Source of the DNA: a virus | Direction: 5' to 3' (one strand) | UHGV virus genome: UHGV-1522278 | DNA: 54,320 nucleotides | Shown here: in pieces, positions 231 to 54,143 of the stretch | Layout of the letters: every line of letters begins with the position of its first letter | Numbering within the stretch: the stretch's first letter is position 1 | Translations under genes and position numbers: made by a program | Notes under the pieces: model-generated | Database searches by the model: none | What the model was told of the DNA's origin: nothing | Seen by the model: the letters and a program-made list of their open reading frames with translations, nothing else

Positions 231-252
231 TGTGTACCAAATAGTGACCAAA
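231..252. repeat. candidate attL core (22-bp imperfect direct repeat, partner at 54122-54143)
   Basis: TGTGTACCAAATaGTGACCAAA here vs TGTGTACCAAATtGTGACCAAA at the right end; abuts the int start codon. Confidence 0.4.
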
Positions 253-256
253 AATC

Positions 257-1456
257 ATGCTTACAGATACCAAACTAAGAAACATCCACGGCAAGCCATA
301 CGACGGCCCGGAAGAAGTACCGGATGCGGGCGGATTGTCTGCCAGGATAAGCCCGCGCGGAGTTATATCTTTCCAGTATCGCTACCGATTCAACGGCAAG
401 CCTCGACGGATGAAGATCGGCACATACGGAGAAATAACACTTAAAGAAGCCCGCGCGGCGGTGGCTGAACATAAGGAAGTGTTAAACTCAGGACGAGATC
501 CATCAATCGTAAAAAGAATGCACTTTTCCCGCGTTACGACACGGGCAACGGTTGAGGATATTGTCAGGGAGTACATGGAATCACCGCAGGCAAGAAACAT
601 GGTTAACTATAAGCAGGTTGAAGCGATGTTGAATAAGCACGTCATCAGGCCATACGGTGTCTATATAGTCGATGATATGGACGCTATGATGTGGGAGGGT
701 GTTTTTAGAAAGGTGGCTAATGGTGGTGCACCAGTTCAGGCGGGCATAGTTCTCAACAGAATGAAAGCGGTAATAAAATACGCCATGCGTCGCCGCCGCG
801 TGGATCGTGACGACATATCGTTACTACGCGTGAAAGACGTTGGTAAAAACCCGGCGCAAGGGAAGCGGGTTTTATCAATACAGGAGATTCGCCATCTAAT
901 CAGCCTTATAGACAGTTCAAAAATGGCGCGTCTAAATCAGATATTGATGAAACTGATTATATTCACCGGATGCAGGACAAGCGAGCTAACAAACGCAAGG
1001 CGAGAACATTTCGATCTTGATAACTGCGTGTGGACTGTGCCTGGTGCATTGAGTAAGAACAGAAACGAGTTTAAACGCGGTTTATCCGACGTTAGCGTCG
1101 ATTTATTGCGTGAGGCTATGGATCTGCATAGCTTTGATTTTGTCTTCGTTCCCGTTCTTTCTGGAAGGGATGAGGCGGTGGACAGAAGCGTACCGAAAAC
1201 AGCGGCAAGGGATTTAATGATGAGGATGGGCGGCGAGCCGTGGTCGTGTCACGATCTACGCCGCACCGTGAGGACAAACCTTTCAGCGCTTGGCGTTGCG
1301 CCTCACGTCGCTGAAAAGGTTTTGGGGCATAAGCTGGCGGGGATGTTGGCTATATACGATCAGTATGACTATGTGAGGGAACAAATAGAGGCGATGAATA
1401 AGCTGGCTGATTATTACATGAAGCCCATTGATTTACAAAATGAAATAACATCCTGA
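257..1456 (+). CDS. int: tyrosine recombinase / phage integrase
   Basis: 399 aa; C-terminal catalytic region with HDLRRT and VLGH..Y motifs typical of the tyrosine integrase family; at the prophage end. Confidence 0.93.
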   Translation: MLTDTKLRNIHGKPYDGPEEVPDAGGLSARISPRGVISFQYRYRFNGKPRRMKIGTYGEITLKEARAAVAEHKEVLNSGRDPSIVKRMHFSRVTTRATVEDIVREYMESPQARNMVNYKQVEAMLNKHVIRPYGVYIVDDMDAMMWEGVFRKVANGGAPVQAGIVLNRMKAVIKYAMRRRRVDRDDISLLRVKDVGKNPAQGKRVLSIQEIRHLISLIDSSKMARLNQILMKLIIFTGCRTSELTNARREHFDLDNCVWTVPGALSKNRNEFKRGLSDVSVDLLREAMDLHSFDFVFVPVLSGRDEAVDRSVPKTAARDLMMRMGGEPWSCHDLRRTVRTNLSALGVAPHVAEKVLGHKLAGMLAIYDQYDYVREQIEAMNKLADYYMKPIDLQNEITS

Positions 1457-1632
1457 TAACGGTAAAGAGATCCGCCGCGCTTTAATGCTGGCATCCCCTT
1501 AACAGGTTCAGGGAAAGGAGTTCCCGCATCTTTCCATTTTTTAACGAGCTTAAAAAAGGCGGACTTACTAAGCCCGCCCAACATTTTTTGCACTTGCTCA
1601 CGATTAATAAGTATTGTCCCGATCTTATCCAT
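1414..1632 (-). CDS. AlpA-family excisionase / transcriptional regulator
   Basis: 72 aa, small HTH protein resembling AlpA-type phage regulators, directly next to int. Confidence 0.7.
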   Translation of the reverse strand: MDKIGTILINREQVQKMLGGLSKSAFFKLVKKWKDAGTPFPEPVKGMPALKRGGSLYRYQDVISFCKSMGFM

Positions 1633-2294
1633 TATCTTTTCCCCGTGAATTCAACATGTCCGATACATCCATCAATAATAGCTTGCGCCATATTGCGATA
1701 ATCGCACGAAAAATCGTTGTCGTGGTTAAAGTCAATCTCTTTTGCCGCGTCTTCACCCATGACATTGATAGCAAGTGCAAGCGCGATTTCAGATAGTGCC
1801 TTTTCTTTCGGGTCAATGTGAATGCGGTAAGAGTATTGTTTCCATGCGATTGCTGTTTCAATATCTGATACTAATTTACTGTGAGCGATAGCCCAATTAT
1901 CACCGAGATATAAAAACTTGACGACATCAAGAACCGTTCCGCTGGTTACACCCATACAATCAAGCCACACATTAACAGGAGGTTTATCACCTGCGGCCCA
2001 TTCCGTTTTTTCTGGTTGTTTTTCGCAGTCATGCCGCTCATCTTCGATTAATTCATCAATGATCTCACTTTCTTTATTCATGCCGTCATCATCCTTATTC
2101 GATAAATTAGCGTATTTATCAAATTTCCAGCTTGCAGCCATAACCGAATAAGTGCCGCCAGTGTCAGCGCGAACACCCAATAGATAGTATGATCCAAAAT
2201 TATATTCTGTGCGGCATGTTGTTACCTCAAACGATGGGTAACATTCAGGGTTAGTGCGATGGCTAATCACGCCAATTGCTTTAAGTTTATTCAT
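1632..2294 (-). CDS. hypothetical protein (att-proximal cargo)
   Basis: 220-aa ORF with an acidic central stretch; no motif recognised. Confidence 0.55.
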   Translation of the reverse strand: MNKLKAIGVISHRTNPECYPSFEVTTCRTEYNFGSYYLLGVRADTGGTYSVMAASWKFDKYANLSNKDDDGMNKESEIIDELIEDERHDCEKQPEKTEWAAGDKPPVNVWLDCMGVTSGTVLDVVKFLYLGDNWAIAHSKLVSDIETAIAWKQYSYRIHIDPKEKALSEIALALAINVMGEDAAKEIDFNHDNDFSCDYRNMAQAIIDGCIGHVEFTGKR

Positions 2295-2308
2295 TTGCTT
2301 ATCCTCAA

Positions 2309-2485
2309 TTACGCCACCGTTACATTGTCAACTTTGATAAAATATTCAGGATGGTTTTCTATTTCGTGCTTGAAGTGTGCGTGACACAATCGCCAATCAC
2401 GCGCCTGGTTGTGAAAGTAATAAACATATTCGCCATCAATCTTATACAAAATTCCAGTAGGTTTAGCCATATAATAACGAGCCAT
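2309..2485 (-). CDS. hypothetical protein
   Basis: start trimmed to the internal ATG at 2485 (GGGGG RBS; ATG overlaps the ninB stop by 1 nt); 58 aa. Confidence 0.45.
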   Translation of the reverse strand: MARYYMAKPTGILYKIDGEYVYYFHNQARDWRLCHAHFKHEIENHPEYFIKVDNVTVA

Positions 2486-2916
2486 TATTGCCCCCAGCGT
2501 TTTATAAATTCCTCGTTTAACTTCGTATCGCCAGACCACTGAACACCGTGTTCAGCGCCGAACGAGTAGATCAGTTCGATTAATTCGCTAAATTCTGATT
2601 TACTCATCCGGCTGGTTGATGTTCCCAGCACAACAAAACCTGATTTATCCAGGTTAGGGACAACGCCATATTTCTTAAGCCCGGCAGTGAATACCGCCTT
2701 CCAGTCTTCCGGCGACAGCTTTTTGCCGTACCAATTAACCTGATCGCTAACGTCTGTCAGCAGCGCCCAAAGTAACGCGTTTTGACTCAGCGAGCGGGTT
2801 TTCTCCTGGATGGTAATGACCAGCGGGCTTTTGCTATCAGGCAGGATTTCCTTTATCTGCCTGATAGCGTTTTCTTTTACGGCATCGTTGACTATTTCAA
2901 ATCTTATTTGCCTCAT
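2485..2916 (-). CDS. ninB: NinB-like recombination protein (Orf family)
   Basis: 143 aa with clear similarity to lambda NinB (IQE..RSL.QN..LWA.L.DVS.QV.W.G, VVPNL, GFVV.G.STSRM). Confidence 0.85.
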   Translation of the reverse strand: MRQIRFEIVNDAVKENAIRQIKEILPDSKSPLVITIQEKTRSLSQNALLWALLTDVSDQVNWYGKKLSPEDWKAVFTAGLKKYGVVPNLDKSGFVVLGTSTSRMSKSEFSELIELIYSFGAEHGVQWSGDTKLNEEFIKRWGQ

Positions 2917-3110
2917 GATACACCGTTACTATTTTTCCACTGTGCCCGCGCATACATGATCGCCCGCAAAGAAATTAGGCGCGAGCTTGTCATGAAAGCG
3001 CTTTTTAAGTACCTCATATCAACAACAACAGGCTTATCAGGATCGTCGCCGCGCATGTATTCCGCAATTGTGCTTAAGTCTTCCACGGTCAAATCTAATT
3101 CCCTATTCAT
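2913..3110 (-). CDS. hypothetical protein
   Basis: 65-aa ORF in the nin-like region, start coupled to upstream gene. Confidence 0.45.
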   Translation of the reverse strand: MNRELDLTVEDLSTIAEYMRGDDPDKPVVVDMRYLKSAFMTSSRLISLRAIMYARAQWKNSNGVS

Positions 3111-3119
3111 GGCCGCCCC

Positions 3120-3326
3120 TTACACAATCCGCATTGTGTTTCGTAACTCACCGCGCAGCGCCTGCAAAGCGTAACGAATAGGCACAAAAGCCCGGTTAAA
3201 TTTTACATGCTTATACTTGCGCATTAATGGAGGCGTATAAACCATCGTGCCGCAACGATCGCATGTGAATTTAAAGTGAGATTCGTCAATAAACGTTTCA
3301 ACTGAATAAAAAATTACCCGTCTCAT
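3120..3326 (-). CDS. hypothetical protein with a CxxC pair
   Basis: 68-aa ORF containing CDRCG. Confidence 0.45.
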   Translation of the reverse strand: MRRVIFYSVETFIDESHFKFTCDRCGTMVYTPPLMRKYKHVKFNRAFVPIRYALQALRGELRNTMRIV

Positions 3327-3880
3327 AATTCCAACCCCGTTTCTCCGTTAAGTTTTTCAATCTCAAATACTGGTTTATCAGGTAGCAGGTAGTTATTTTT
3401 CCGGTACTCGTTCAGGCGGCTGTCAAAGTCAAACGCCAAATCATTGGCGTGACCGAATCGCCCAGGTTTAAACAGTGAGTAAAAATTAACCCCATGCCTA
3501 TTTGGATCAACGCAAAGCGTTTCATCAATCACCATTAAACGCAGAGTACGAGAAAGATAATTCCACGGTATACCCGTTTCAGCGCTAATGTCGCGCATAC
3601 GCTTTTTAACGCTGTAGTCACCAAATAACGACGCGACACGCTCACGACGTTCAGCATATAACTGTTTAATACGATAACCCAGCAGGCGGCGGCGGCGTCC
3701 AAAGCATGTATACACGCGCTCGACGATGCCGTTTTTTATTAAGTGTTTAATTGTCTCAGGCATGATTCCATACTTATCATACCCAGCCAATAACCCTGTT
3801 TTCTGGCGTAACTGGTGCATTGTTGCGATGCCATCAAGTTCAAGGATATTGATAATTTTTGTTTCAATTTCAGCGCTCAT
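3323..3880 (-). CDS. hypothetical protein
   Basis: 185-aa ORF downstream of the helicase gene in the same operon. Confidence 0.55.
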   Translation of the reverse strand: MSAEIETKIINILELDGIATMHQLRQKTGLLAGYDKYGIMPETIKHLIKNGIVERVYTCFGRRRRLLGYRIKQLYAERRERVASLFGDYSVKKRMRDISAETGIPWNYLSRTLRLMVIDETLCVDPNRHGVNFYSLFKPGRFGHANDLAFDFDSRLNEYRKNNYLLPDKPVFEIEKLNGETGLEL

Positions 3881-3956
3881 TTTTAGCCTCGTTTAAAACG
3901 CGATAACAGCCACCAGAAAGCGGTAAACTTTCCGGTAAGCCGTTTGCTCAGATTAA

Positions 3957-5372: not shown

Positions 5373-5390
5373 TATGTTATTTCCTCCGGT

Positions 5391-6509
5391 TTACAAAATG
5401 GAAAATTCAGGGTAATAAACAAAGCGCCCGATCTCACCATGATCCGGGCTGTAGATGATAACCGCCGCCAGGCGACGCGACCGCCATCCGCCATTAGTCG
5501 AATAAGCATCCTTACCGGCTAACGTGCCGTGGTGCTCAACAATTCCGAGCGACGTTTCAACGACTGATTGATGGTGCAGATGTCCAGTGTGCGCGTAAAC
5601 AGCAACCGACTTCCCGAAATCCTCGCGCCAGTCAGAGACGCAAGCAGCCAATAAATTTTCAGGCTTTTTGATAGTGTGCCCGTGGTGGTAAGCGAGAAAT
5701 GTTTTACCGTACTGCGTGTGGTGAACGATAGCAGGTGACACATCAACCGTCACACGCGGTTCATCTTCGTAAAAAGCCGCCAGCGCCGCACGTAACCAGA
5801 TCATCCCTGACTGATCGTGATTGCCTGATAACACCTGGATTTCAATATCCTTATGATTTAACAACATCTTACCTACAGCACGCCGGACAGACCTGATCGC
5901 TACATAGACAAGTTTTGCATAACGACTATCTTGATCAAGAATGTGCCCGCTTGTTGGCGTAACCGGGACCATTCCATCAGAATGAAGCAGGTCGCCACCT
6001 AGAAGCAAAACGGCTTTTTCAGACATCGGCGCGGCGCCCACAGCGTAGTCAAAGAAGTCATTCAACACGCGCTCAGCGATCCCGGTGTCGTAGCTCTCGC
6101 CGCATTCTGCTTTGTGAGCAAGTGCGCCGATATGCAGATCAAATACCGGATAAAGGGCCAGGCTTTTTTGGAAATCAATTTCCGGCACTGGCACGGCCTC
6201 CGCGCGTGGTATTTCTTCCGTGAATGCGTCGCGGGCCGATTCCATTAGCTGTTCCATTTCATCGCGGTCACGGGCTGTTTTAATCCAGCGCATGATCACA
6301 TTGCCGTTCTTATCGACTAGCAACGACTCGCCATTGACGCCAAAACCAGGCGCGCGGCGTGTTGACAATAAACCGCGTTTCGCCAGTTTTGCCCCCAGGC
6401 GCTCTACGTTGCGTTTTGACATGCCGTACTTTTCAGCGATCTGCTTGTACGTTAAACCGTTGTTATATTCAGCGATCAATTGCTCATCGCTTATCTTTCT
6501 TTGTGACAT
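5391..6509 (-). CDS. HTH domain fused to a calcineurin-like metallophosphoesterase
   Basis: 372 aa; N-terminal HTH (LTYKQIAEKYGMSKRNVERL); phosphoesterase motifs DLH, GGDLLH, GNHD, HHGH, GHLHH. Confidence 0.8.
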   Translation of the reverse strand: MSQRKISDEQLIAEYNNGLTYKQIAEKYGMSKRNVERLGAKLAKRGLLSTRRAPGFGVNGESLLVDKNGNVIMRWIKTARDRDEMEQLMESARDAFTEEIPRAEAVPVPEIDFQKSLALYPVFDLHIGALAHKAECGESYDTGIAERVLNDFFDYAVGAAPMSEKAVLLLGGDLLHSDGMVPVTPTSGHILDQDSRYAKLVYVAIRSVRRAVGKMLLNHKDIEIQVLSGNHDQSGMIWLRAALAAFYEDEPRVTVDVSPAIVHHTQYGKTFLAYHHGHTIKKPENLLAACVSDWREDFGKSVAVYAHTGHLHHQSVVETSLGIVEHHGTLAGKDAYSTNGGWRSRRLAAVIIYSPDHGEIGRFVYYPEFSIL

Positions 6510-6543
6510 AGTGTCATTTCCTCACGAATAACAAATTGTATAC

Positions 6544-7284
6544 TTAGTTACAAGTTAAAAGCTCAGTGATCCATACTTGTCCTTTAGCAGTGAATACAGC
6601 CTGCTCATATCCATCGTGAGTTACCCTCATTTCACCGTAGCCCTCATCAATAAACCACTGACTGAATACACGGCGGCGACAGCGAAGATCGTAAACACCA
6701 ACCGCCGAAAGTTTTCTGTTTAATTTTACGGCTGACATTCCCAGCGGTTTAGCTACCTCTGAAGCCGTTCGGTGCATATCGTTTTTGACTATCGCGTCAC
6801 ATACAGCCGCTTTCGGAGCCAGCACCTTGTTTTCAAGCGTAAGCCGTTCATTTTCTTTCTTAACTAACAATTTTTGCTCAACCTCATCCGCCCATGCGCG
6901 GGCTGCCGCAACCGGATCAGTGAAATCCGGCAAAGCTAGTTTGTGTTGCGCCTCCTCCAACTCTTTAACGCGTTTAATTACCTTCATGCGTTGCTTAACG
7001 TCATAGCCAGTGATCAAGCACATTGTTAGCTCTTTATTTAGCAAAACCTCATCAATGACGTTGCGACCTTTGTACTGCTTGTACTTAAACAAAAACCCTA
7101 TAAATTCAAAATCCTGCATTTTTGCAGGATAAAAATCATGTTCAGTAAACCCTAAATCTAGCAGCATGTTTTTAATATCACGCACAACCACAGAAGAATG
7201 ATCCTTGTCTGTTGCTTCTGCTATTTCACGCGATGAAATCATTAATACTTCGCTATCGACATCAAAAACCATCAATTCAGACAT
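6544..7284 (-). CDS. antirepressor-like protein (Rha N-terminal + KilA-C/ANT C-terminal domains)
   Basis: start set at the ATG at 7284 with GGAGA RBS; Rha-like motif ISSREIAEATDKDHSSVVRDI. Confidence 0.75.
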   Translation of the reverse strand: MSELMVFDVDSEVLMISSREIAEATDKDHSSVVVRDIKNMLLDLGFTEHDFYPAKMQDFEFIGFLFKYKQYKGRNVIDEVLLNKELTMCLITGYDVKQRMKVIKRVKELEEAQHKLALPDFTDPVAAARAWADEVEQKLLVKKENERLTLENKVLAPKAAVCDAIVKNDMHRTASEVAKPLGMSAVKLNRKLSAVGVYDLRCRRRVFSQWFIDEGYGEMRVTHDGYEQAVFTAKGQVWITELLTCN

Positions 7285-7651
7285 TGTATTTTCTCCGTAA
7301 AACGCGCTACAACGCAAAAATCCCACCGCGTAACCCGTTTGCACAGGTTGCAGTGTCTTATTGCGTTATAGACGCTCTCAGGTGGCTAATTTTTGATTTA
7401 CAGGATGGTATGAAGGTTATAGATTGACCAGAAGGAACAAACCGCCGAACAAAGCGACGTTAACGGCGATTGCAGCAGCGATGGCAAAAGCCAGGGCAAA
7501 AACGTGTTTACCGTCCATTTTGAAATCCTCTCTAAAACGCTCTCTAACGAGATAAATAGCTAAAGGTATGCAAGTGTAGCACTCAATGCTTTTTAGCTCG
7601 CTGGTGAGCTTGTTTTGCGGGTAATTTTGTGTTTTTGCGTATCGTGTTTGG

Positions 7652-8704
7652 TCAAAGAGCGCCACATCGTGTATCACGTAGCGTTTTTGGTTTAAGCAGG
7701 AAATCAAGTGTCGCAGTGAAGCCATCGCCGAAGTAAAAATCTGAAGCATTGTTTTTGAACGTTTCAAAGTAGGCGACAAAGCCGTTAATGCTTTTGTCTT
7801 TCAGGTAGTCAGTGAACGCATAAATCTTGCGTTCAAGATCCCGATCCAGTTCGGCAGGTGGCAACATGCCATCAAACGTGCTGTTAAATGCCTCCACTAC
7901 GTCGGCAGCGTTTGCAGTGGCTGACAGTTTGCGCCATTTTTCAGCATCAGCCAGATACCCATCAAATTTAGTCACCCGGCAAATGTTTATAGGCTTAGGT
8001 GTTCCACCACGGCTACGCCATTGCGTTAAAGCCCACTCAATCACTAATGTGATCTCATCCTCCGTATACGCTTTACGTGTTTTTGTTTCTGTCAGTAGTT
8101 CTACGAATGGCTTAGCATCACGACACTTGCATCCTGCCTTGTCGTTGTAGAAGGCCAGACAACGCAACGCCGCTTCGTTTACGCCATCCTGACTGACCGT
8201 TTTTTGTTCATTTTCGACAATACACGAAGTGTATATATCTTTTTCTCTTTCTTCTTCTTCTTCTAATTCTAATTCATGACCCTTTCCTGACCCTGTCATG
8301 ACCCTATCATGACCTTTTTGTGTTTGATTGATTAGCTTTTCTAATTTTAATTGCTCCTTAGCTGTGTTTATTGCTGCCCTGTATGCGCTTTTAGAAGTCA
8401 TTGATTGGTCAAGCCTTTTCAATAACTTTAAACAAGTTATGTGGCCCTGAGAACATTCGAATAAACCAATTTCGATAAAGTATTTCATCATTTCTTCTAT
8501 GCGCTTTTCAGTAGATCCTACGTTTCGCGCAATGATTCTTGCATCGTGTCGAAGGTCAAAATTAAGGTTGTGCTGATCTACGTCGTAAGTTATCAGTTCG
8601 AGGCAATACCAATAAAGACCGTAACCTTCCAGGCCATAATCTAATAAAACGTTTTGAAGTTTTTCATCGCGGTTCGCATCGCTATCATGCTTAAACCACT
8701 TCAT
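7652..8704 (-). CDS. phage replisome organiser / replication initiation protein (DnaD-like N-terminal domain)
   Basis: N-terminus MKWFKHDSDANRDEKL...GYGLYWYCLELI resembles the Lin1244-type replisome organiser domain; start 8704 chosen for GGAGGA spacing and ATGA coupling. Confidence 0.75.
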   Translation of the reverse strand: MKWFKHDSDANRDEKLQNVLLDYGLEGYGLYWYCLELITYDVDQHNLNFDLRHDARIIARNVGSTEKRIEEMMKYFIEIGLFECSQGHITCLKLLKRLDQSMTSKSAYRAAINTAKEQLKLEKLINQTQKGHDRVMTGSGKGHELELEEEEEREKDIYTSCIVENEQKTVSQDGVNEAALRCLAFYNDKAGCKCRDAKPFVELLTETKTRKAYTEDEITLVIEWALTQWRSRGGTPKPINICRVTKFDGYLADAEKWRKLSATANAADVVEAFNSTFDGMLPPAELDRDLERKIYAFTDYLKDKSINGFVAYFETFKNNASDFYFGDGFTATLDFLLKPKTLRDTRCGAL

Positions 8705-8706
8705 AA

Positions 8707-8961
8707 TCATTCCTCCGGCAACATAACTACATAGACACCACTAAACGCATCAATACGGCAAACAAACCCTTTGCTAATTAATGCGGCGAAGGCATCATGT
8801 ACCGTATGAACAGGAAGTTCACACATTTTTGCTACTTCTTCGCGTGATACGCTTGTCCGCCCCTGGCTATCCGCCGTCTCAGCAAGGGCGATCAAAACTA
8901 GTTTTTGAATCGGGCTGTTAAGTTTTACGTTCCATGCTTTGCTAATTATGTTCATGCTCAT
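8707..8961 (-). CDS. HTH DNA-binding protein, first gene of the leftward early operon
   Basis: 84 aa from the ATG at 8961 with AGGAGA RBS; HTH-like segment SREEVAKMCELPVHTVHDAF. Confidence 0.6.
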   Translation of the reverse strand: MSMNIISKAWNVKLNSPIQKLVLIALAETADSQGRTSVSREEVAKMCELPVHTVHDAFAALISKGFVCRIDAFSGVYVVMLPEE

Positions 8962-9070
8962 CGTGTTTTCTCCTATGGTTAGAGTGAACGCGCTGGCGGG
9001 CATCCAATTAGCATTAGATAGCAGTGACTGACCGCTCAACAGATCCCGCCGTTGCGTGATATTTGTTTTT

Positions 9071-9102
9071 CGCTTCGCAGCGACACCGGATTTTTAAAGA
9101 GC
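9071..9102 (-). promoter_or_regulatory. nut-like site (boxA-like GCUCUUUAA plus hairpin) in the leftward early leader
   Basis: minus-strand reading AGCTCTTTAAAAA then 11 nt then CGCTGCGAAGCG (4-5 bp stem, GCGA loop). Confidence 0.35.
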
Positions 9103-9143
9103 TTTTAAGGTATGTTCCTTTTGTGCTTTCCATTATCTTTTTT

Positions 9144-9267: not shown

Positions 9268-9915
9268 ATGAAAACAAAATGGTATGACTTGGCAAAACAA
9301 CTCATGCGGGCGCAGGGCATGAGTCAGGATTCACTGGCTGATCTCATGGGGATAACAAAAGGCGGCTTGTCGCACTGGCTGAACGGTCGCCGTGAGCCAA
9401 ATCTTGAAGATATTGCGCGGATCATGCGGGCGCTTGGGCGTCGGCAATTCACTGTCACACATGATGGGATGGTCATCGATGATTCTGTTTCTAACACGTT
9501 ACCGGGAGCGCCACCGCGTGATTTAGGCAGTTACCCGGTTGTTGACTGGAAGGACGCAGTAAACAATATGGAAGATGCAAGGCGATCAACATTACCACAC
9601 GTTACAACTAGCGTTATTTGTTCTGATGATAGTTATTGGCTGGTAGCTAAAGGCGAATCAATGAACGCTCCGCAAGGATTGAGTATACCAGCGGGGACGA
9701 TGATACTTGTCGATCCGCACGCGCCAGCTATTGACGGCAAACTAGTTATAGCCCAACTGGAGGAAGGGCAAACTCCTACGTTTAAACAGCTTGTTATTGA
9801 TGGAGGTCAAAGGCTTTTACGTTCACTCAATCCGCTGTATCCACCGATCCCTATGAATCCAGAATCTAAAATCATAGGTGTGGTAGTGGATGCGAAGATC
9901 GTAAACCTGCCATAA
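9268..9915 (+). CDS. cI-like repressor (HTH plus S24 LexA-type peptidase domain)
   Basis: 215 aa; N-terminal HTH (SQDSLADLMGITKGGLSHWLNG); C-terminal S24 motifs GESM and a downstream Lys. Confidence 0.88.
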   Translation: MKTKWYDLAKQLMRAQGMSQDSLADLMGITKGGLSHWLNGRREPNLEDIARIMRALGRRQFTVTHDGMVIDDSVSNTLPGAPPRDLGSYPVVDWKDAVNNMEDARRSTLPHVTTSVICSDDSYWLVAKGESMNAPQGLSIPAGTMILVDPHAPAIDGKLVIAQLEEGQTPTFKQLVIDGGQRLLRSLNPLYPPIPMNPESKIIGVVVDAKIVNLP

Positions 9916-47800: not shown

Positions 47801-50280
47801 ACGTTATCGCTGAAGAGAAAAAAGCGACAGCGGAATCACTGGAAACCATCACGGCAGAAATGAACACGATGGATTCCAACCTTAAAGGTCAGATTTCCAG
47901 CGTGGAACGTGCAGTGGCTGACGAGGCCAGCGCACGCGCCGAAGCTATTAACGGTGTGAACGCCTCAATAGACAATCTCGACAAGAAAACTGACGCCAGC
48001 GTTAAACGTCTGGACCAGGCAATCGCCGATGAATCGAGCGCGCGCACCCAGGCTGTCAGCGACGTTAACGCAAGCATTTCAGCACTTGACAAGAAAACTG
48101 ACGCCAGCGTTAAACGCCTTGATCAAGCTATTGCAGACGAAACAAGCGCACGCGCCGAAGCTATCAATGGGGTAAATGCCTCAGTATCAGCACTTGATAA
48201 GAAAACCGATTCAAGCATAAGCCGCCTTGATAAAGCTATTGCCGACGAAACGAGCGCGAGAACCGAAGCCATCAATGGTGTGAAGGCATCAATCTCCACA
48301 CTTGACGGCAAGGTAACAAGTAACGTTAATCGCCTTGATAAAGCTATTACAGACGAAACTAAGGCACGCACTGACGCTATCAGCAGCGTTAATGCAAGCA
48401 TCAGCACGCTTGAAAGCAACACTGAATCAGAGGTGAACAGACTCGACCAGGCCATCGCTGACGAGGCCAGCGCACGCGCACAGGCCATCAGTGGCGTGAA
48501 GGCATCGATAGACACCCTTGATAAGAAAACAGACGCCAGCGTTTCCCGTCTTGATAAAGCGATAGCAGACGAAACTCAGGCAAGAAGCGCCGCAATAACA
48601 GATGTTAAGGCTGATTTGACAACGCTCGAAAACAGCACAAACGCCAGCGTCAAACGCCTTGACCAGGCGATTGCTGACGAATCAAGTGCCCGCGCTGAAG
48701 CAATATCAGGCATTAACGCAGAGATCGGCAGCATCGAAAACAACGTTGACAAAAACAGCGATGATATAAATCAGACCAAAGCAAGCCTGCAAAACGCTTC
48801 ATTGGCGCTTATCAACAACTCGCTTGCACAGACAAACACGCGCGTAACCCTTACCGCCCAGTATAAGAAAGGTCGCAAGGAAACAAACGCGCAGATTGAT
48901 CGTATTGACAGTGTTATCGCTGAAGAGAAAAAGGCTACAGCCGAAGCAATTGGCGTGGTAAAAGCATCGATCACCGATCTTGACAAGAAAACAGACGCCA
49001 GCGTTTCCCGCCTTGACAGAGCGATTGCAGACGAAACAAGCGCACGCAGCGAGGCTATCAGCGGCGTGAACGCATCAATTTCCACCATTGATAGTAATGT
49101 GAAAAGCAATATTACCAGGATGGATAAGGCTATCGCCGACGAAACAAAAGCACGCGCAGACGCAATAAGCGGCCTTAATGCATCGCTTACCAGTACGATC
49201 ACCTCGAAAGTATCTGAGGTATCAACGGCACTGGCTACGCATGAGGAATCAAGCGCTGAAAAATTCAGCCAGATCTCAGCGTCATTCGAACTAGTAGACG
49301 CAAGTATCACTGAATGGTCGCAGGCGATGGCTACGGCTGACGAGGCGTTATCAACGAAAATCGATCAGCTAACAGTGACCGTTAACGGGAATAAGACGGC
49401 AATAGAAACGACATCTAAAGCATTGACCGACTTCAAGGGCAATGTTGATGCGTCGTACTCTATCAAGCTGGCGACCGACAACAACGGAATGAAATACGCA
49501 ACAGGTATGTCGCTTGGCCTCACTGGTGACGGCACTAACTTTCAGTCGCAGTGTATTTTCCTTGTTGACCGTTTCGTGTTAATGACCGCAGCAAACGGCA
49601 CATATACAACGCCTTTCTATGTCACCAATGGCGCAATGTATGTAAGAGAAGCGTTTATTAAGGACGGAACTATCAACTCCGCCAAAATAGCTGATCGAAT
49701 ACAGTCAGTTAATTACAGCTGGGAAAACGGTACAGGATGGGCGATAGATAAAGCCGGTGACGCAGTATTTAACCAGGTAACCGTAAGGGGTACGGTATAC
49801 GCTTATGCTGGTGTGTTTAACGGTACTGTTTACGCAACTGGCGGTAAATTTACTGGAGCAGTTGAAGCTACAAGTTTTGTTGGTGACGTGGCAAGTATGT
49901 CAGTGATAAACGAGGATGTATTTCCGTCAATGAGGGGAAATGGCAGCAGGCGCGTTTCGAAAACTTATCTTGATTCAAGTTCATCAAGTTTATCAAAAAC
50001 AGTTTACGTTATGATTCCGTATGATTTGTCATACCATACATATAGTGAATCTTCTCGCATCAATGTAACTATAAATATAAGCGGACACACAAAAACAATT
50101 AATATAGAAAGGCCAGCATCAGGCCAAGCAATGTCATCTGTCGCGGTGCACTGTGTATCTGGCCTCACATACCCAACAATTACAGTCGAGGTGACGGAAA
50201 ACTTTACCAATACATCTAATGCAGCAATAAGAAAACCAGGTTTAATACTTATAACAAGAAGTTCAGGAACATGGATATAA
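44839..50280 (+). CDS. J: host-specificity / central tail fibre protein J-like, extended by a long coiled-coil repeat domain
   Basis: 1813 aa; N-terminal two-thirds J-like; aa about 1020-1450 are about 11 tandem 37-aa repeats (LDKKTDASVKRLDQAIADE.SAR.EAI.GVNASI); distinct C-terminal domain. Confidence 0.85.
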   Translation: MSSGGGKAKTPTLLNDNLFHKQFYRVLDILSEGPIYGPVNQKAPLNSVMLNDSPITDANGGTSVPGVSVAWRNGTADQSPINGFNAIESTVIVNAKVTHDTPIIRTVSDPNVNRVRLNLGVDSLVQSDDKGNQYNTSVVLMVDVKPSSSTTWSLVKDITIGPGKQSGEYMEAHIIQAPDEKPFDIRVRRVTPDSKSDLLRNDTRWSSYSEIIDDNLSYPHTAVAGAVIDHDQYTDTPTRTYHMRGLIVDVPDNYDPETRTYSGLWLGGFKKAYTNNPAWLFRYLVKNERFGLTRHAGYIDVDDGALYVLSQYCDQLVNDGYGGLEPRMTLNAYITEQISARDLLDNIAGMFRGIALWDGQRLTVMIDAPQDPIATITNANVVDGAFTRSSIARAESYNAVIVSWTDPENGWEQSKEYVADDELIARDGYNETTLEAFGCTSRGQAYRAGKWLIETAKREPSKFTFKMARDAIHFTPGDIIEILDNNRAGARLGGRIVANNGKVITVDKVDSDLVAAGDTISLLDSDGKFKKHQITGVNGNNITLAAAPAWIRNGTVFAVSTESAKPVLCRITSVAETENNSVYTIEAAQHDPHKQAVVDEGAIFEVNNDTLNHFRVPNIENLKVLNVGSETVQCRATWETQTTTHRLTFEIRVYNTEGRIVATYETTNYRYDFYGLDAGSYTLGIRGRNDTGMKGAESIVDLVIGAPAAPIGVNWVPGVFQATVYPISKTTLTTDTAYDFYYSGENQITDPSKVTTLAQFTGRGYQWTFGGMNTGHTYYVYVRTRNAFGVSDFVEASGKPTENFDEISDYVMKDVMESEQFKDMIGDIKDLGDRADLIESATNDLKNATDNLKTATDTLTNVTDELRTDTDNLTNITEDLRTDTDSLITETGVIKADTDTLKKETEDLYKKVKENADDIGQHESRIDLLEVSSEKVDSELAQAKASLQNASLALINNSLAQTNTRVTLTAQYKKGMTETKAEIDRIDNVIAEEKKATAESLETITAEMNTMDSNLKGQISSVERAVADEASARAEAINGVNASIDNLDKKTDASVKRLDQAIADESSARTQAVSDVNASISALDKKTDASVKRLDQAIADETSARAEAINGVNASVSALDKKTDSSISRLDKAIADETSARTEAINGVKASISTLDGKVTSNVNRLDKAITDETKARTDAISSVNASISTLESNTESEVNRLDQAIADEASARAQAISGVKASIDTLDKKTDASVSRLDKAIADETQARSAAITDVKADLTTLENSTNASVKRLDQAIADESSARAEAISGINAEIGSIENNVDKNSDDINQTKASLQNASLALINNSLAQTNTRVTLTAQYKKGRKETNAQIDRIDSVIAEEKKATAEAIGVVKASITDLDKKTDASVSRLDRAIADETSARSEAISGVNASISTIDSNVKSNITRMDKAIADETKARADAISGLNASLTSTITSKVSEVSTALATHEESSAEKFSQISASFELVDASITEWSQAMATADEALSTKIDQLTVTVNGNKTAIETTSKALTDFKGNVDASYSIKLATDNNGMKYATGMSLGLTGDGTNFQSQCIFLVDRFVLMTAANGTYTTPFYVTNGAMYVREAFIKDGTINSAKIADRIQSVNYSWENGTGWAIDKAGDAVFNQVTVRGTVYAYAGVFNGTVYATGGKFTGAVEATSFVGDVASMSVINEDVFPSMRGNGSRRVSKTYLDSSSSSLSKTVYVMIPYDLSYHTYSESSRINVTINISGHTKTINIERPASGQAMSSVAVHCVSGLTYPTITVEVTENFTNTSNAAIRKPGLILITRSSGTWI
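47668..47762 (+). repeat. exact 95-bp direct repeat, copy 1 (inside J)
   Basis: identical to 48778-48872; similarity continues with mismatches for about 100 bp more. Confidence 0.8.
47896..49200 (+). repeat. degenerate tandem coding repeats (about 111-bp unit, about 11 copies) inside J
   Basis: periodic repetition of GACAAGAAAACTGACGCCAGCGTTAAACG...ATTGC(A/C)GACGAA-type units; in-frame coding, not CRISPR. Confidence 0.6.
48778..48872 (+). repeat. exact 95-bp direct repeat, copy 2 (inside J)
   Basis: identical to 47668-47762. Confidence 0.8.
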
Positions 50281-50285
50281 AAAAC

Positions 50286-50313
50286 AACCCCGCTTCGCGC
50301 GGGGTTTTCTTTT
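50286..50313. terminator. bidirectional rho-independent terminator between J and the lipoprotein gene
   Basis: AACCCCGC-ttcgc-GCGGGGTT followed by TTTCTTTT. Confidence 0.6.
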
Positions 50314-50560
50314 AGTAGTTAGCTACACAGTTAGAAGGGCTACCGATGCGGCGCATGTTGTGATCGAGTTCGTGACACCATTGACCAGTATATGGCAGTT
50401 TTTCAGTGTCATAGACTAGATGCCCGCCACCATCATAAACAACATCTTGCGGAATTACTCCACTATTCGGCAGGTTATGCAATGCAGCCTCTTTGTCAAC
50501 AGAGCAACCAGTAAGAGCAACAGCCGCAGCGAACAAAACCACTTTGAACACGTTTTTCAT
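50312..50560 (-). CDS. lipoprotein, candidate Cor-like superinfection-exclusion protein
   Basis: 82 aa; signal peptide plus lipobox (MKNVFKVVLFAAAVALTGC); convergent with and immediately downstream of J. Confidence 0.7.
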   Translation of the reverse strand: MKNVFKVVLFAAAVALTGCSVDKEAALHNLPNSGVIPQDVVYDGGGHLVYDTEKLPYTGQWCHELDHNMRRIGSPSNCVANY

Positions 50561-50737
50561 TTTTGAACCCTCATTCTTGTTTGTTAATCCGGTTCACCCG
50601 GTGACTTAAATATCCGGCAAAACCACATTTCGTATATTGACACAGATCAACAAATACATTTTGTGTAAGCAGAAAATGCAACACAGATCACAAAATGGTA
50701 GAATTATTCCGTTAATTAACAAAATGGAGTCATCGAG

Positions 50738-53700
50738 ATGATTTACACAACTGGAACAATTGCCATCAGCGGCAATACTGTTACAGGCACGGGCACAAAC
50801 TTTTCCGCGCCGCTTTCTCTTATTCGTGTAGGTTGCACGCTCATTGCTGTTGGCAACCCTGTACAGATCTTTACCATCACGGAAATCAAAAGTGGTACTG
50901 AACTGTCAGTGACGCCAGCGGCTAACCCCGCCATCCCTGCCGGGACAAAATTTAGCATCCTGCTATCTGACTCGATCTCAGTTGATGGGCTTGCTCAGGA
51001 CGTGGCTGAAACCCTGCGTTACTACCAGAGCAAAGAAACAGAAATCGCCTCCGCTGTAGAGTGGTGGGAAGATTTCGGCGGCGAAGGTCAGTTGGATCAG
51101 CTTCTTACCAACATTCGCGCAGAAACAGCACAATCAACCGCCAACGCTCAAAAAACAGAAACTGACAAAAACGCAGCAGAAGCGTCAAAAACAGCGGCTG
51201 CAAAATCTGCCACAGCAGCGAAAACATCAGAAACTAACGCTAAGGCAAGCGAGACGGCAGCGAAAACAAGCGAAACCAACGCCAAAACATCAGAGAACAG
51301 GGCGCAAGAATATCTGAATCAGATAATAAGGTCTAACAACGCATTGGTACAATGCAATTGGCCTGTTACAACTGAAGCCTTTGCCCGTTATGTGAAGATC
51401 GCTAAACTAACCGATCCGGGTGCAGTAAGCTGCCATTTAACACTAATGATCGCCAATGGCGGTAACTACGGTACAAGTTACGGGAATATTGACTTTGTAG
51501 AGATCTCCGCTCGCGGTCTTAGCGATGTGGAAAGCATAACCAGTGAAAATATAACTAAATTTTTAAGTGTTCGCCGCCTCGGATCGCCTAACCTTGCTAA
51601 TGACAACCAAATGCGTTACGGCCTGGTTAAAGGTGACGGCTATATCGAGGTCTGGTGCTACCAGCGAGCTTTTATTAAAGAAACAAAGGTTGCGATACTG
51701 GCACAGACTGGCAGAACTGAATTATACATTCCTGAAGGGTATGTCGTTCAGGAAGCCGAACCCGCTGGATATGTTGAAAGCCCAGCAGCAAGGATTTACG
51801 ATCAGGTAAACAAACCAAGCAAGGCAGACTTAGGCCTTTCTAATGCTATGCTTATAGGCGCTTTTGGTCTTGGCGGCAGCGGTCCGTCATCAAACGGCAT
51901 GATGAGCAATACAGAGCTATTAAAAGCACTGCGTGCAAAAGGTAGTCATTTCTGGCGTGCTGATAAGCCTGACGGAAGCACAGCGACACATTACGCCCAC
52001 GGTTCTGGTATATTCTCTCGGTGCGGTGATACATGGTCGGCGATCAACATAGAATACGAAAATGCCAGAGTTAAGATTTTCGCTGGCAATGATAACAAAC
52101 TTGAAACTGCAACTTATGCCGTAAATGAGCTATACGGAACCAAAAATAAGCCGTCGAAATCTGACGTTGGACTTGGCAACGTAACTAATGATGCGCAGGT
52201 GAAAAAATCCGGCGATATTATGTCTGGCGACCTGGCGGTCTATAAAGATACTCCGTCACTATTCCTTAGGGCAAAAGATGGAGCAGGTGCTGCCGCTGTG
52301 CGGTTTTTCACTGATCAAAACCTGGAGCGCGGCATAATCTATGCTATTCAAAACACTGATACGCTTGGAGAAGTTCGCATTAGGGCTAAAAACGCAAAAG
52401 GTGAAACAAACGGTGATCTTGTTGTTCGCCACAACGGGGTGGTTGAGGTTCAGAATCTCACAGCGGCTAAAAAAGTAAAAAGCGTAAACGCAGAGCTTGC
52501 AAACACATCAACTAACACGCTTGAGAACACGTTAAAAATCAGCGGTCAACAGCATACTCCATTACTTTTAACGCGTACCGGTTATACTGAAAACCTATCC
52601 ATTGGCTTTAAGGTTGACAACCTTGATCAAAAATATCTCGGAATCAATGGCAGTGGAGATCTAGCTTTTGGTAAAAATGCTGATCATAAACAAAACAGCA
52701 GAGTGATTACGCAAGCAATACTGGATAGCGGGGTGACGGTAGGCGGCAAAACAACATTTTCTGACCTTGCCACATTTAACGCAGGTATGGCTGGAGCAAT
52801 TGAGCCTGAAAGCATTTCTGAAGTGGCTGTTGATCTTAATAATCTGACCATAAAAGGCACAGATAAAGGTTCAGTTAAATACTATCACTGCAGAACTGCC
52901 GGAGGCGGTGCAAATATTACCAATAAGCCTGCTGGCATAGGTGGTAACTTTTTGCTTCGTGTAGAGTCAATTCGTAAGATCACGGATTCAGATTATACAA
53001 ACTTGCAAACCCTTGTTGGCACAGACACAAAACAAATATACGTTCGCTATTGTGAAAATGGCAATTGGTCTGCATGGAGTCAGATTGTTGTTTCAGGAAG
53101 AAATCAGGATGTAACCGTCAGGTCGTTAACCTCGACGACTCCATCAAAATTAGGTGGCGGGCGTATTGATGTGCTTGGGAGTACGTCAGATTATAACAGC
53201 ATGAATTGTACCGTGCGCGGTGTTGATAGCAGCGGAACTAATTCTGCGTGGTCAGTAGGCACATCAGTAGACACTGGCAAAATGTTGTTCCTGAAAAACC
53301 ACAGAAGCAGCGCTCAAGTGCTGTTAAATGGCGATGACGGCGCGGTTCAACTACTAAGCGGTACTGTCAACGGTGCTACAGCACAGGCGCTAACCATCAA
53401 CAAAGATGAGGTTAACTCAACTGCTGATTTAGTAATTAGAAAACAAACAGGGACTGGCAATCGTTTTGTTTTACAGAACGCAGGTAATGCAGAACTACCG
53501 TTTTCTGTCAGTGTGTGGGGTTCCAGTACTCGACAAAACGTTTTTGAGGTTGCCACGTCTGCTGCGTATCTGTTTTATGCGCAAAAAACGTCAGCAGGCC
53601 AGTTGTTTGATGTAAATGGCGCTATTAATTGCACAACGCTGAATCAGTCATCAGACCGCGACCTTAAAGACGATATTCTCGTTATCAGCGACGCGACGAA

Positions 53701-54064
53701 AGCAATCCGTAAAATGAACGGATACACCTACACGCTCAGGGAAAACGGGATGCCTTATGCTGGCGTTATTGCACAGGAAGTAATGGAGGCGCTACCGGAA
53801 GCCGTAGGATCGTTTACTCGTTACGGTGAAGAATTGCAGGGTCCGACCATTGATGGCAACGAGCTACGCGAAGAAACGCGTTACCTCAATGTTGATTATG
53901 CGGCGGTGACTGGTTTACTTGTCCAGGTGGCACGCGAAACGGATAACCGCGTCACCAAACTGGAAGAGGAAAACGCCAGCCTGAAAGCTAACATTGCCGC
54001 AATGGATGAGCGTATCGCAAAACTTGAAGCGCTTGTCAGTCAGTTGACCGGAAGCGAAGAATAA
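50738..54064 (+). CDS. side tail fibre protein with C-terminal intramolecular chaperone (S74-type) domain
   Basis: 1108 aa; Thr/Ala-rich SETNAK-type repeats near the N-terminus; C-terminal about 120 aa resemble the self-cleaving chaperone domain and end in a coiled coil. Confidence 0.85.
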   Translation: MIYTTGTIAISGNTVTGTGTNFSAPLSLIRVGCTLIAVGNPVQIFTITEIKSGTELSVTPAANPAIPAGTKFSILLSDSISVDGLAQDVAETLRYYQSKETEIASAVEWWEDFGGEGQLDQLLTNIRAETAQSTANAQKTETDKNAAEASKTAAAKSATAAKTSETNAKASETAAKTSETNAKTSENRAQEYLNQIIRSNNALVQCNWPVTTEAFARYVKIAKLTDPGAVSCHLTLMIANGGNYGTSYGNIDFVEISARGLSDVESITSENITKFLSVRRLGSPNLANDNQMRYGLVKGDGYIEVWCYQRAFIKETKVAILAQTGRTELYIPEGYVVQEAEPAGYVESPAARIYDQVNKPSKADLGLSNAMLIGAFGLGGSGPSSNGMMSNTELLKALRAKGSHFWRADKPDGSTATHYAHGSGIFSRCGDTWSAINIEYENARVKIFAGNDNKLETATYAVNELYGTKNKPSKSDVGLGNVTNDAQVKKSGDIMSGDLAVYKDTPSLFLRAKDGAGAAAVRFFTDQNLERGIIYAIQNTDTLGEVRIRAKNAKGETNGDLVVRHNGVVEVQNLTAAKKVKSVNAELANTSTNTLENTLKISGQQHTPLLLTRTGYTENLSIGFKVDNLDQKYLGINGSGDLAFGKNADHKQNSRVITQAILDSGVTVGGKTTFSDLATFNAGMAGAIEPESISEVAVDLNNLTIKGTDKGSVKYYHCRTAGGGANITNKPAGIGGNFLLRVESIRKITDSDYTNLQTLVGTDTKQIYVRYCENGNWSAWSQIVVSGRNQDVTVRSLTSTTPSKLGGGRIDVLGSTSDYNSMNCTVRGVDSSGTNSAWSVGTSVDTGKMLFLKNHRSSAQVLLNGDDGAVQLLSGTVNGATAQALTINKDEVNSTADLVIRKQTGTGNRFVLQNAGNAELPFSVSVWGSSTRQNVFEVATSAAYLFYAQKTSAGQLFDVNGAINCTTLNQSSDRDLKDDILVISDATKAIRKMNGYTYTLRENGMPYAGVIAQEVMEALPEAVGSFTRYGEELQGPTIDGNELREETRYLNVDYAAVTGLLVQVARETDNRVTKLEEENASLKANIAAMDERIAKLEALVSQLTGSEE

Positions 54065-54094
54065 TAGGTGATGTGCGAAGAACATCGCCGCGCG

Positions 54095-54121
54095 AAACGA
54101 GGCTTACGCCTCGTTTCTTTT
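54095..54121 (+). terminator. rho-independent terminator after the tail fibre gene
   Basis: AAACGAGGC-tta-CGCCTCGTTT followed by CTTTTT. Confidence 0.6.
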
Positions 54122-54143
54122 TGTGTACCAAATTGTGACCAAA
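54122..54143. repeat. candidate attR core (partner of 231-252)
   Basis: TGTGTACCAAATtGTGACCAAA, 21/22 identical to the left-end copy. Confidence 0.4.

Follow-up and report, generated by a model that had tools for sequence, protein, structure and literature searches.

The window, that is the whole 54,320-nucleotide stretch of DNA analysed here, holds a complete prophage unit of 54,122 bp (94-54215) lying between two parts of the host gene abgT. The features on which the analysis draws are, in window coordinates:

11-103, minus strand: detached 3' end of host abgT (stop codon 11-13; last 27 codons 14-94; then the LIF codons inside the core)
94-103, plus strand: attL core AAAAGATAAG, the sole sequence common to attL, attB and attR; crossover most likely in GATAAG (98-103)
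104-123, plus strand: candidate right core-type (C') integrase site TAGGTAGCGCC..., so assigned from its resemblance to attB CGGATAGGGC
104-54215, no strand: prophage body, with PHROG and Pfam matches to replication, cI-like repressor, Erf, lysis, terminase, portal, capsid, tape measure, J protein and tail fibre
131-212, plus strand: P' arm spacer with 10-bp-phased ATCGT(GTCA) repeats at 131-139, 141-145, 184-192, 194-198 and 204-212
231-252, plus strand: putative P' arm-type site pair (TGTGTACCAAAT + AGTGACCAAA), 4 nt 5' of the int ATG and just 3' of a TAAAAT hexamer (224-229)
257-1456, plus strand: tyrosine integrase of 399 aa with Arm-DNA-bind_3, Phage_int_M and Phage_integrase domains, 96% identical to mEp010 Int
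1414-1632, minus strand: small DNA-binding protein of 72 aa, candidate recombination directionality factor (RDF; excisionase), convergent with int
54094-54121, plus strand: intrinsic terminator 3' of the tail-fibre gene; its counterpart in mEp010 is annotated as T19
54122-54143, plus strand: putative P arm-type site pair (TGTGTACCAAAT + TGTGACCAAA), assigned by repeat comparison across phages
54172-54184, minus strand: weak IHF-like match (12/13 to WATCAANNNNTTR) between the P arm site and the core, not compelling
54210-54215, plus strand: candidate left core-type (C) site CCATTC, invariant in type II phages and found in the type I attP too
54214-54320, minus strand: truncated host abgT, continuing past the window edge, with the new end ...PYPLIF and stop
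54216-54225, plus strand: attR core AAAAGATAAG, from alignment to the empty site

The integrase (Int) has the catalytic R...HxxR...H...Y set (R240, H332, R335, H358, Y367), invariant in an alignment of four lineages, together with a PF00589 match. Its N-terminus matches the PF13356 Arm-DNA-bind_3 family (E = 2e-19; 69.9 bits against a cutoff of 27), and residues 2-89 match the N-domains of the CP4-like integrase structures PDB 3ju0, 3jtz and 3rmp. The 72-aa protein has a weak match to a PHROG “DNA binding protein” (E = 4e-4) and is 45% identical to an HTH protein of phage mEp021 that bears an HTH_23 domain; a Pfam search of the 72-aa ORF returned no family. The cI-like repressor is encoded by an ORF at 9268-9915.

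The prophage belongs to the mEpimmI group, in which four integrase/att types occur in a similar backbone; phages of type II (mEp010, mEp013, mEp044, along with prophages in UMNK88, RM9245 and others) are reported to insert at the 3' end of abgT, and type III is reported to target mppA (Front Microbiol 2025, PMC11893012). An immunity group I repressor and N-like, Nus-dependent antitermination with three nut sites are further marks of the group. The window Int clusters with those of mEp010, mEp013 and mEp044, at 95.5–96.0% identity over 399 aa as against 51% for the type I integrase of mEp021, and is 94–96% identical to the type II integrases taken more widely (these three phages and the prophages of UMNK88, RM9245, 09-00049 and others). 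The type II phages share with the window the same insertion site in the 3' end of abgT and the same attP.

The host boundaries can be read from bacterial genomes. The left flank is matched in 5,401 of 5,426 complete E. coli genomes and the right flank in 4,914 of them; among the matches listed, those to the left flank end at window position 113 except in 13 prophage carriers, and those to the right flank begin at 54216 except in 12 carriers. Strains described in PMC11893012 recur among these genomes. Empty-site genomes match the window at 1-103 and 54216-54320 only, and in them position 103 is joined straight to 54226 via a single AAAAGATAAG, which is the sole segment common to attL, attB and attR in a three-way alignment and is found in attP as well. 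Host similarity stops at 103-113 and restarts at 54216, and phage similarity spans 94 to 54225; the alignment to mEp010 begins exactly at 94. The same core junction is found in N1286 and at many IMG/VR prophage ends. The first-pass annotation had listed the AAAAGATAAG repeat as a second, weaker alternative for the attachment site, and the empty-site alignment makes it the true core. It occurs in the window only at 94-103 and 54216-54225. A 10-mer repeat of this kind is not significant by itself, the two 3-kb ends having four 10-mers in common.

Strand exchange took place within this 10-bp identity, most probably in GATAAG, to which it is narrowed by a secondary-site lysogen that has these six bases alone in common with the core; AAAAGAT, our first guess for the overlap, was replaced on the strength of the same junctions. 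Beyond the core, 6 of 10 bases are identical to attB, and type II attP sequences carry the variants TAGGTA and CGGATA at the candidate C' site. Compensatory inverted repeats around the core (CTACC..GGTAG versus TTATCC..GGATAA) were considered as evidence for the dyad centre and set aside, as three stretches (L030, L036 and L028) are hybrids and the covariation is not strict.

Both flanks being abgT coding sequence, the insertion is not intergenic, as had been proposed, and lies inside the gene 27 codons ahead of its stop. The frame-1 translation of the detached end reads ...LLIFLVVWLLMLLAWYLVGLPIGPGIYPRLS followed by the stop, identical to the AbgT C-terminus of an empty-site strain, and the truncated gene now terminates at a TGA (54214-54216) that straddles the host/phage junction. 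The leftward ORF start at 116 that had been taken to border the insertion does exist as a minus-strand ATG (114-116), and so does the terminal AAAAGGAGATA of the right flank, but these are within or adjacent to the coding sequence of abgT, the one not a gene start and the other not a ribosome-binding site. No tRNA or tmRNA gene was found within the window, the target being the abgT coding sequence.

A second and longer direct repeat lies near the same ends. The 22-mers TGTGTACCAAATAGTGACCAAA (231-252) and TGTGTACCAAATTGTGACCAAA (54122-54143) differ at one position; with up to 3 mismatches allowed, the window has no other match, and 100 dinucleotide shuffles give an expectation of 0.00, so the repeat reported in the first-pass annotation is real and non-random. 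Its described setting also holds: 4 nt separate the left copy from the integrase ATG (257), and the right copy begins where the T-run of the terminator hairpin (54094-54117) stops, 3' of the tail-fibre ORF (50738-54064). Identity is confined to the 22 bp and extends no further.

A significant, near-perfect direct repeat close to both ends of the phage genes, abutting int on one side and following the last terminator on the other, invites the reading that the 22-mers are the attL and attR core duplications of a prophage lying between them in an intergenic region. We regard this as practically negligible. No 22-mer is present in the 3.1-kb empty locus, where the best match has 8 mismatches in 22 positions and the flanks meet via the single AAAAGATAAG; the annotation had itself proposed aligning both flanks to an unoccupied locus, and the junctions so obtained differ from the 22-mers. 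Phage DNA runs on past both copies, for ~127 bp beyond the left and ~72 bp beyond the right, and free-phage genomes contain both 22-mers 231 bp apart with the core in between. That the whole prophage is inside the window was correct; its size is not the ~53.9 kb enclosed by the 22-mers but that of the unit running from core to core.

Both 22-mers are thus of phage origin, and their arrangement is that of a single attP. When the window ends are joined across the core (54065-54225 + 104-260), the reconstructed attP is colinear with the uninterrupted tail-fibre-to-int region of the free phage MagusPhagus and of circularised mEp010. The P copy starts 94 bp ahead of the core and the P' copy 137 bp past the core start; at the left end of the prophage the order is core, 127 bp, 22-mer, 4 nt and int ATG. 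Each 22-mer consists of two TGTGTACC-type half-sites of ~11 bp in tandem (TGTGTACCAAA / GTG-ACCAAA), and none of these half-sites is found elsewhere in the 54 kb, the immunity region included.

The same motif occurs in 35 IMG/VR stretches, in three arrangements: as pairs 231 or 241 bp apart, always with one terminator-side and one int-side copy; as single copies on prophage-contig stretches that hold just one arm; and, in contigs L024 and L035, as a lone copy that joins the terminator to int, with the core segment missing. In mEp021, whose attB is in ydaM and whose DNA between the motifs is unrelated, both 22-mers are kept at 21/22 bases. More distantly, tandem TGTGTAC half-site pairs lie 230–233 bp apart in Salmonella phage Oslo (Int 46% identical), L210/L217 (45%) and Proteus phage Pm34 (42%), in each case with the proximal pair just 5' of int. 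In L188 (Int 49%) similar half-sites are 232 bp apart, their 15/20 match being no more than the shuffled maximum. Alignments show TGTGTAC as an invariant island amid diverged DNA in both arms, which indicates selection on the motif itself. The P copy sits at the edge of the conserved tail-fibre terminator block, and part of its conservation within mEpimmI could be hitch-hiking; this caveat does not apply to the P' copy, nor to Oslo and Pm34.

Taken together, we put at roughly 0.8 the probability that the window holds in full a temperate phage of 54.1 kb that belongs to the mEpimmI group, has a type II integrase and was inserted in the 3' end of abgT through site-specific recombination by a tyrosine recombinase, and that its 22-mers are arm-type integrase sites. 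The 22-mers are best read as P and P' arm-type sites because the pair is kept across phages (mEp021, Oslo and Pm34) whose cores differ but whose N-terminal Arm-DNA-binding domain is related. The first 90 residues of Int are more conserved than the rest (63% versus 48% identity for mEp021, 58% versus 43% for Oslo and 53% versus 39% for Pm34), an excess that is only moderate.

From sequence, integrase would be expected to bind the 22-mers. Its N-terminal domain would hold the arm-type sites while the core-binding and catalytic domains work on the core, bridging arms to core in an intasome in which the four half-sites could correspond to the four protomers of the integrase tetramer. Integration leaves one pair near attL and the other near attR, so that the 22-mers come to resemble terminal repeats. 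The int-proximal pair probably also autoregulates int, by analogy with KplE1 IntS and P4 Int, for which such repression has been shown: Int bound there, between the TAAAAT hexamer and the int ATG, would probably repress its own gene. The promoter in this proposal is the hexamer at 224-229, noticed by eye, since a sigma-70 consensus scan of positions 1-400, upstream of int, found none.

The position of the int-proximal copy is equally where an operator of the int promoter would sit, and the 22-mers might instead bind another factor, such as the small HTH excision factor, a nucleoid protein of the host or a regulator of int (a CII-like activator, or a repressor), with the true arm sites elsewhere. 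The ATCGT repeats are one candidate for the latter, being 10-bp phased like many arm or Xis sites, and the small HTH protein, too, is conserved from type I to type II phages (45% identity). We consider this explanation unlikely. The 22-mer motif lies on both sides of the core, as is typical of arm-type sites, whereas the ATCGT repeats are one-sided and, though kept in type II phages, are swapped for unrelated repeats in mEp021, Oslo and Pm34, where TGTGTAC stays. The motif is missing from the immunity region and the remaining genome, its four half-sites fit an integrase tetramer, and it tracks this integrase subfamily into the unrelated backbones of Oslo and Pm34. The ATCGT repeats are themselves candidate sites for the excision factor or for a regulator of the int promoter.

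Less probable still is that the 22-mers are non-functional relics or linkers at mosaic-module boundaries, kept through swaps of attP-int cassettes between phages. The four integrase/att types in an otherwise similar mEpimmI backbone (PMC11893012) would fit such swapping, similarity to mEp021 in the tail-fibre module stops exactly at the P copy, and the two metagenomic contigs without DNA between the copies look as if the copies had recombined. The P' copy, however, is inside the swapped cassette (core to int) and not at its edge; the same paired architecture, with 230–241 bp spacing, is present in Salmonella and Proteus phages with other neighbouring genes; and the invariant TGTGTAC island in diverged flanks points to selection on the motif.

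Read as arm-type sites, the 22-mers give the attP a familiar plan. The heterobivalent integrase of lambda (arm sites P1, P2 and P'1-P'3) is likewise a tyrosine recombinase whose N-terminus forms a separate arm-binding domain, and its repeated non-core motifs flank a short core in an attP of ~250 bp and are split between attL and attR on integration. In contrast to lambda, the N-domain of the window Int belongs to PF13356, a P4/CP4-like family; each arm has two adjacent putative half-sites rather than 2 + 3 sites; int faces away from the core with its start beside the P' arm; and there is no convincing IHF site, the weak 12/13 match being the only IHF-like sequence in a 357-bp reconstructed attP (54065-54225 + 104-299).

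A parallel for the int-proximal pair is found in the KplE1 (CPS-53) IntS/TorI, HK620, Sf6 and P4 modules, where the int promoter is overlapped by attL and int represses itself; in KplE1 this autorepression is mediated by P' arm sites for IntS that overlap the promoter of intS inside attL (PLoS Genet 2010, PMC2951348). The window int is also transcribed away from attL with a putative arm-type pair directly 5' of its start, the TAAAAT hexamer is similar to the KplE1 -10 (TAaAAa), and a separate small DNA-binding gene is not co-transcribed with int. Unlike KplE1, the target is the protein-coding gene abgT and not a tRNA gene, and the candidate RDF is convergent with int.

The 22-mer pair is an ordinary feature of an already described phage group, and current understanding of site-specific recombination is unchanged by it. 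For annotation, it illustrates that a prophage's att site is not necessarily its longest terminal direct repeat: with the 22-mers taken as ends, each boundary would be off by ~100 bp and the truncation of abgT would go unseen. In the main text of PMC11893012 a term search turned up neither “attP” nor, in its recombination sense, “arm”, and the present analysis supplies an attP map (core, candidate core-type sites, putative arm-type pairs and candidate RDF) not found in that text. A full-text literature search for GTGTACCAAA returned unrelated primer sequences only.

More speculatively, and at slightly less than even odds, the tandem TGTGTAC pairs may form an arm cassette of fixed geometry common to integrases of at least three crossover sequences, with natural re-targeting through the core-binding/catalytic part and the core DNA alone and the intasome scaffold kept. 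The P pair lies ~88 bp from the conserved CCATTC core half-site and the pairs are 230–241 bp apart; the crossover sequences found with this arrangement are those of abgT, ydaM and the shared Oslo/Pm34 core; and with the cassette an integrase can also use a secondary site at which just 6 bp are identical. An arm cassette common to integrase types with different targets is a testable prediction and, if true, this case of re-targeting might serve as a template for engineering integrase specificity.

Two broader scans were set aside. The half-site pair pattern TGTGTACCA N215-240 TGTGTACCA retrieved at least 120 IMG/VR stretches, mostly unrelated environmental contigs, and is too unspecific; a 22-mer scan of 185,579 species-representative genomes gave 4 matches (Actinomycetes, Olivibacter and marine MAGs), which we judged to be chance, with ~1 match expected for 20 specified bases in 596 Gb. 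Among the type II phages, mEp010 is colinear with the window from 94 to 54190 (blastn; 49,061 of 54,320 bases aligned at ~90% identity) and has both 22-mers, as does the shared type II attP; the window prophage is a distinct isolate, without the mEp010 homing-endonuclease gene and with replaced segments at 6550-7290, at 8174-8966 and in the middle of the tail fibre (51044-53605).

The 22-bp direct repeat that the first-pass annotation proposed as the attL and attR cores of the prophage is genuine: allowing up to three mismatches, it has two matches in the window, with zero expected from 100 shuffles, and identity stops at 22 bp in both copies. Its described surroundings also stand, with the ATG of the 399-aa ORF (257–1456), the integrase gene int, lying 4 nt past the end of the left copy and the right copy starting where the T-run of the tail-fibre terminator hairpin ends. 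Each copy consists of two tandem half-sites, TGTGTACCAAA-t and (a/t)GTG-ACCAAA, neither of which recurs elsewhere in the 54 kb. A weaker alternative, the 10-bp AAAAGATAAG, is found at 94–103 and 54216–54225 and at no other place in the window, and is not significant alone because the two terminal 3-kb segments have four 10-mers in common. The window holds no tRNA or tmRNA gene.

Features of the prophage ends and their surroundings
11–103, minus strand: detached 3′ end of abgT
131–212: ATCGT(GTCA) repeats, 10-bp phased, between the core and the int-side (P′) half-site pair
231–252: left copy of the 22-mer, TGTGTACCAAATAGTGACCAAA
1414–1632, minus strand: 72-aa ORF convergent with int, with a weak PHROG DNA-binding match
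50738–54064: tail-fibre ORF, 1108 aa
54094–54117: terminator hairpin downstream of the tail-fibre ORF
54122–54143: right copy of the 22-mer, TGTGTACCAAATTGTGACCAAA
54214–54320, minus strand: truncated abgT ending ...PYPLIF*, its TGA stop (54214–54216) formed across the junction

We located the ends by megablast of the left and right 256 bp of the window against 5,426 complete E. coli genomes. The left flank matches 5,401 of these, only 13 past position ~113, and the right flank 4,914, only 12 over its full length; among the matches listed, non-carriers cover window 1–113 on the left and begin at 54216 on the right, annotated as abgT on both sides. The empty-site strain 503025 has the gene order fnr-ogt-abgT-abgB, with abgT on the window’s minus strand. 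In a three-way alignment, attL equals attB through window 103 and attR equals attB from 54216 on, leaving AAAAGATAAG as the sole segment common to all three; the 10 bases after it are 6/10 identical to attB (TAGGTAGCGC vs CGGATAGGGC), and the closest match to the 22-mer in the empty 3.1-kb locus still has 8 mismatches. The empty site thus shows other junctions than the 22-mers, which by the first-pass annotation’s own criterion refutes them as att cores; the att core is instead the 10-bp repeat. Since both flanks are abgT and the alignment sets the junctions there, the insertion lies inside this gene and not in an intergenic region, as had been suggested. Two flanking features dissolve with that suggestion: the leftward ORF from 116 is an out-of-frame artefact over the detached abgT fragment, and the “RBS-like” AAAAGGAGATA belongs to the coding part of abgT. 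The insertion cuts 27 residues, a hydrophobic segment, from the C-terminus of AbgT (508 aa), and the prophage brings no replacement 3′ end. RefSeq keeps the name abgT for such truncated genes in lysogens.

The element is a new isolate of the mEpimmI phages, a group already described (PMC11893012; Front Microbiol 2025), and it sits at the target reported there for phages with type II integrases, the 3′-terminal region of abgT; those with types Ia/Ib use ydaM and those with type III use mppA (PMC11893012). The published type II prophage hosts (UMNK88, RM9245, 09-00049, GN05505, GN04592, E21845, 190, 127 and MLI107; PMC11893012) coincide with the occupied-site E. coli matches found here, and the prophage sequences in that paper’s supplement terminate ...CCATTCAAAAGATAAGCGGATAGGGC, in agreement with our junction. 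Int has Arm-DNA-bind_3 (PF13356, E = 2e-19), Phage_int_M and Phage_integrase domains and the catalytic residues R240, H332, R335, H358 and Y367, and is 95.5–96% identical to its counterparts in mEp010, mEp013 and mEp044, 94% to that of MagusPhagus and 51% to that of mEp021. The prophage unit, 94–54215, measures 54,122 bp vs 53,791 bp in mEp010, with which it is colinear by blastn (window 94 to 54190 = mEp010 25 to 53790; 49,061 bases aligned, ~90% identity); position 25 of mEp010 is the first core base, window 94, and its positions 1–34 carry on as window 54192–54225. PHROG and Pfam matches give a complete module set (DnaB-like helicase, replication initiator, cI-like repressor, Erf, spanin, large terminase, portal, capsid, tape measure, J protein and tail fibre). 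The window lacks the homing-endonuclease gene mEp010_11 and differs from mEp010 at 5400–5406, 6550–7290, 8174–8966, 49901–50276 and 51044–53605; for four segments of the window mEp010 offers no match, and one of them, ~2.6 kb from the central part of the tail-fibre gene, suggests a host-range module swap.

Whereas the abgT site confines strand exchange to AAAAGATAAG, a second insertion narrows it. In IMGVR_UViG_3300045988_111075, a type II mEpimmI prophage, the same phage ends are joined to non-abgT DNA, with attL reading ...GGCTTAACC-GATAAG-CGGATAACGCC... and attR ...CCATTCAAAA-GATAAG-TGGTTTTAC.... Rejoining these flanks restores an intact 68-codon AlpA-like HTH gene of an E. coli island, and the rejoined 241-nt sequence is found uninterrupted at 100% identity in many E. 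coli genomes (≥80% cover in 3,483). This is therefore a secondary attB with only GATAAG in common with attP, which places strand exchange within GATAAG ± one base (window 98–103 / 54220–54225). Immediately left of the core, CCATTC (54210–54215) is invariant in type II attP (CCATTC-AAAAGATAAG) and is present in type I as CCATTC-CAGACAGG (type Ia attP and attL), in both types ~88 bp past the start of the terminator-side (P) pair; type I attP is ~10 bp longer, and the excess is on the P′ side. Compensatory inverted repeats did not hold strictly as definers of the dyad and were dropped.

What, then, are the 22-mers? We reconstructed attP by joining window 54065–54225, through the core, to 104–260. 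Base for base, the product runs colinear with circularised mEp010 and with the free phage MagusPhagus, in which the stretch from tail-fibre terminator to int is uninterrupted, so both 22-mers belong to the phage. The start-to-start distance of these direct repeats in attP is 231 bp, the core beginning 94 bp past the first base of the P copy and 137 bp ahead of the first base of the P′ copy. The simplest reading, in which binding is inferred from sequence, is that they would be the P and P′ arm-type sites of a heterobivalent integrase, with four half-sites for a tetramer. Such an assignment is routine, yet as far as we found it is not stated for the mEpimmI group in the literature searched.

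Comparative tests support a specific, integrase-linked function for the 22-mers. An exact-pattern scan of IMG/VR returned 35 stretches. Where the motif is paired, one copy is on the terminator side and the other on the int side in every case, at a spacing of 231 or 241 bp; elsewhere it is single, on prophage-contig stretches carrying just one arm. The exceptions are IMGVR_UViG_3300045988_076816 (L024/L176) and IMGVR_UViG_3300045988_064823 (L035/L177), in which one 22-mer bridges the terminator and the int ATG and the core-bearing 209 bp are gone, a loss to be expected if the 22-bp direct repeats recombined or the assembly collapsed there; phages with this loss would be without attP. mEp021 (type I integrase), with its attB in ydaM verified by PCR (PMC11893012), keeps both 22-mers at 21/22 bases around 219 bp unrelated to those of the window. 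In Salmonella phage Oslo (Int 46% identical), where attP follows umuC rather than a tail fibre, the distance from TGTGTACCAGATTGTGTACCAA to TGTGTACCAAATTGCGTACCAA is exactly 231 bp, and in Proteus phage Pm34 (42%) that from TGTGTACACAATGGTGTACATAA to TGTGTACATACCTGTGTACACAG is ~233 bp. We also looked for arm pairs, scored against shuffled sequences, at 34 further integrase loci that had sufficient DNA upstream. Contiguous attP have pairs at 230–241 bp, those of type I (241 bp) and of loci L210/L217 (230 bp) each scoring above the shuffled maximum and that of L188 (232 bp; 15/20) equalling it; integrated ends have the proximal pair only. GTAC-centred tandem repeats still precede int where integrases are 34–38% identical, and TGTGTAC is an invariant island amid diverged DNA in alignments of six lineages on the P′ side and four on the P side. 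Within Int, conservation is higher over the N-terminal 90 residues than over the rest (63% vs 48% in mEp021, 58% vs 43% in Oslo, 53% vs 39% in Pm34), in agreement with the reported conservation of the N-terminal DNA-binding region of these integrases (PMC11893012). Midway between their arm pairs, Oslo (~1299–1317 of L008, its stretch) and Pm34 (~1314–1332 of L009) have a common block, ATGTGATCTTGCGTATAAG, probably a core that serves both at a third target site.

Because transcription of int leads away from attL, only the 153 bp from core to ATG can contain its promoter; a consensus scan of this upstream region found none, and a TAAAAT hexamer (224–229) lies directly 5′ of the P′ pair. In KplE1 the P′1 arm site overlaps the intS -10 (TAaAAa), and intS is repressed by IntS and by the RDF TorI; P4 acts similarly (PMC2951348). 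Given this precedent and the position of TAAAAT, int is likely to be autorepressed through the 231–252 pair. IHF-like sites amount to one weak match (54172–54184). The ATCGT(GTCA) repeats are type II-specific, their position being taken by unrelated repeats elsewhere (ATCCGTTC in mEp021, TGTTTCA in Oslo and Pm34), and are candidate sites for the excision factor (RDF) or for an int-promoter regulator such as a CII-like activator. The 72-aa ORF is 45% identical to an HTH_23 protein of mEp021 and is a candidate RDF.
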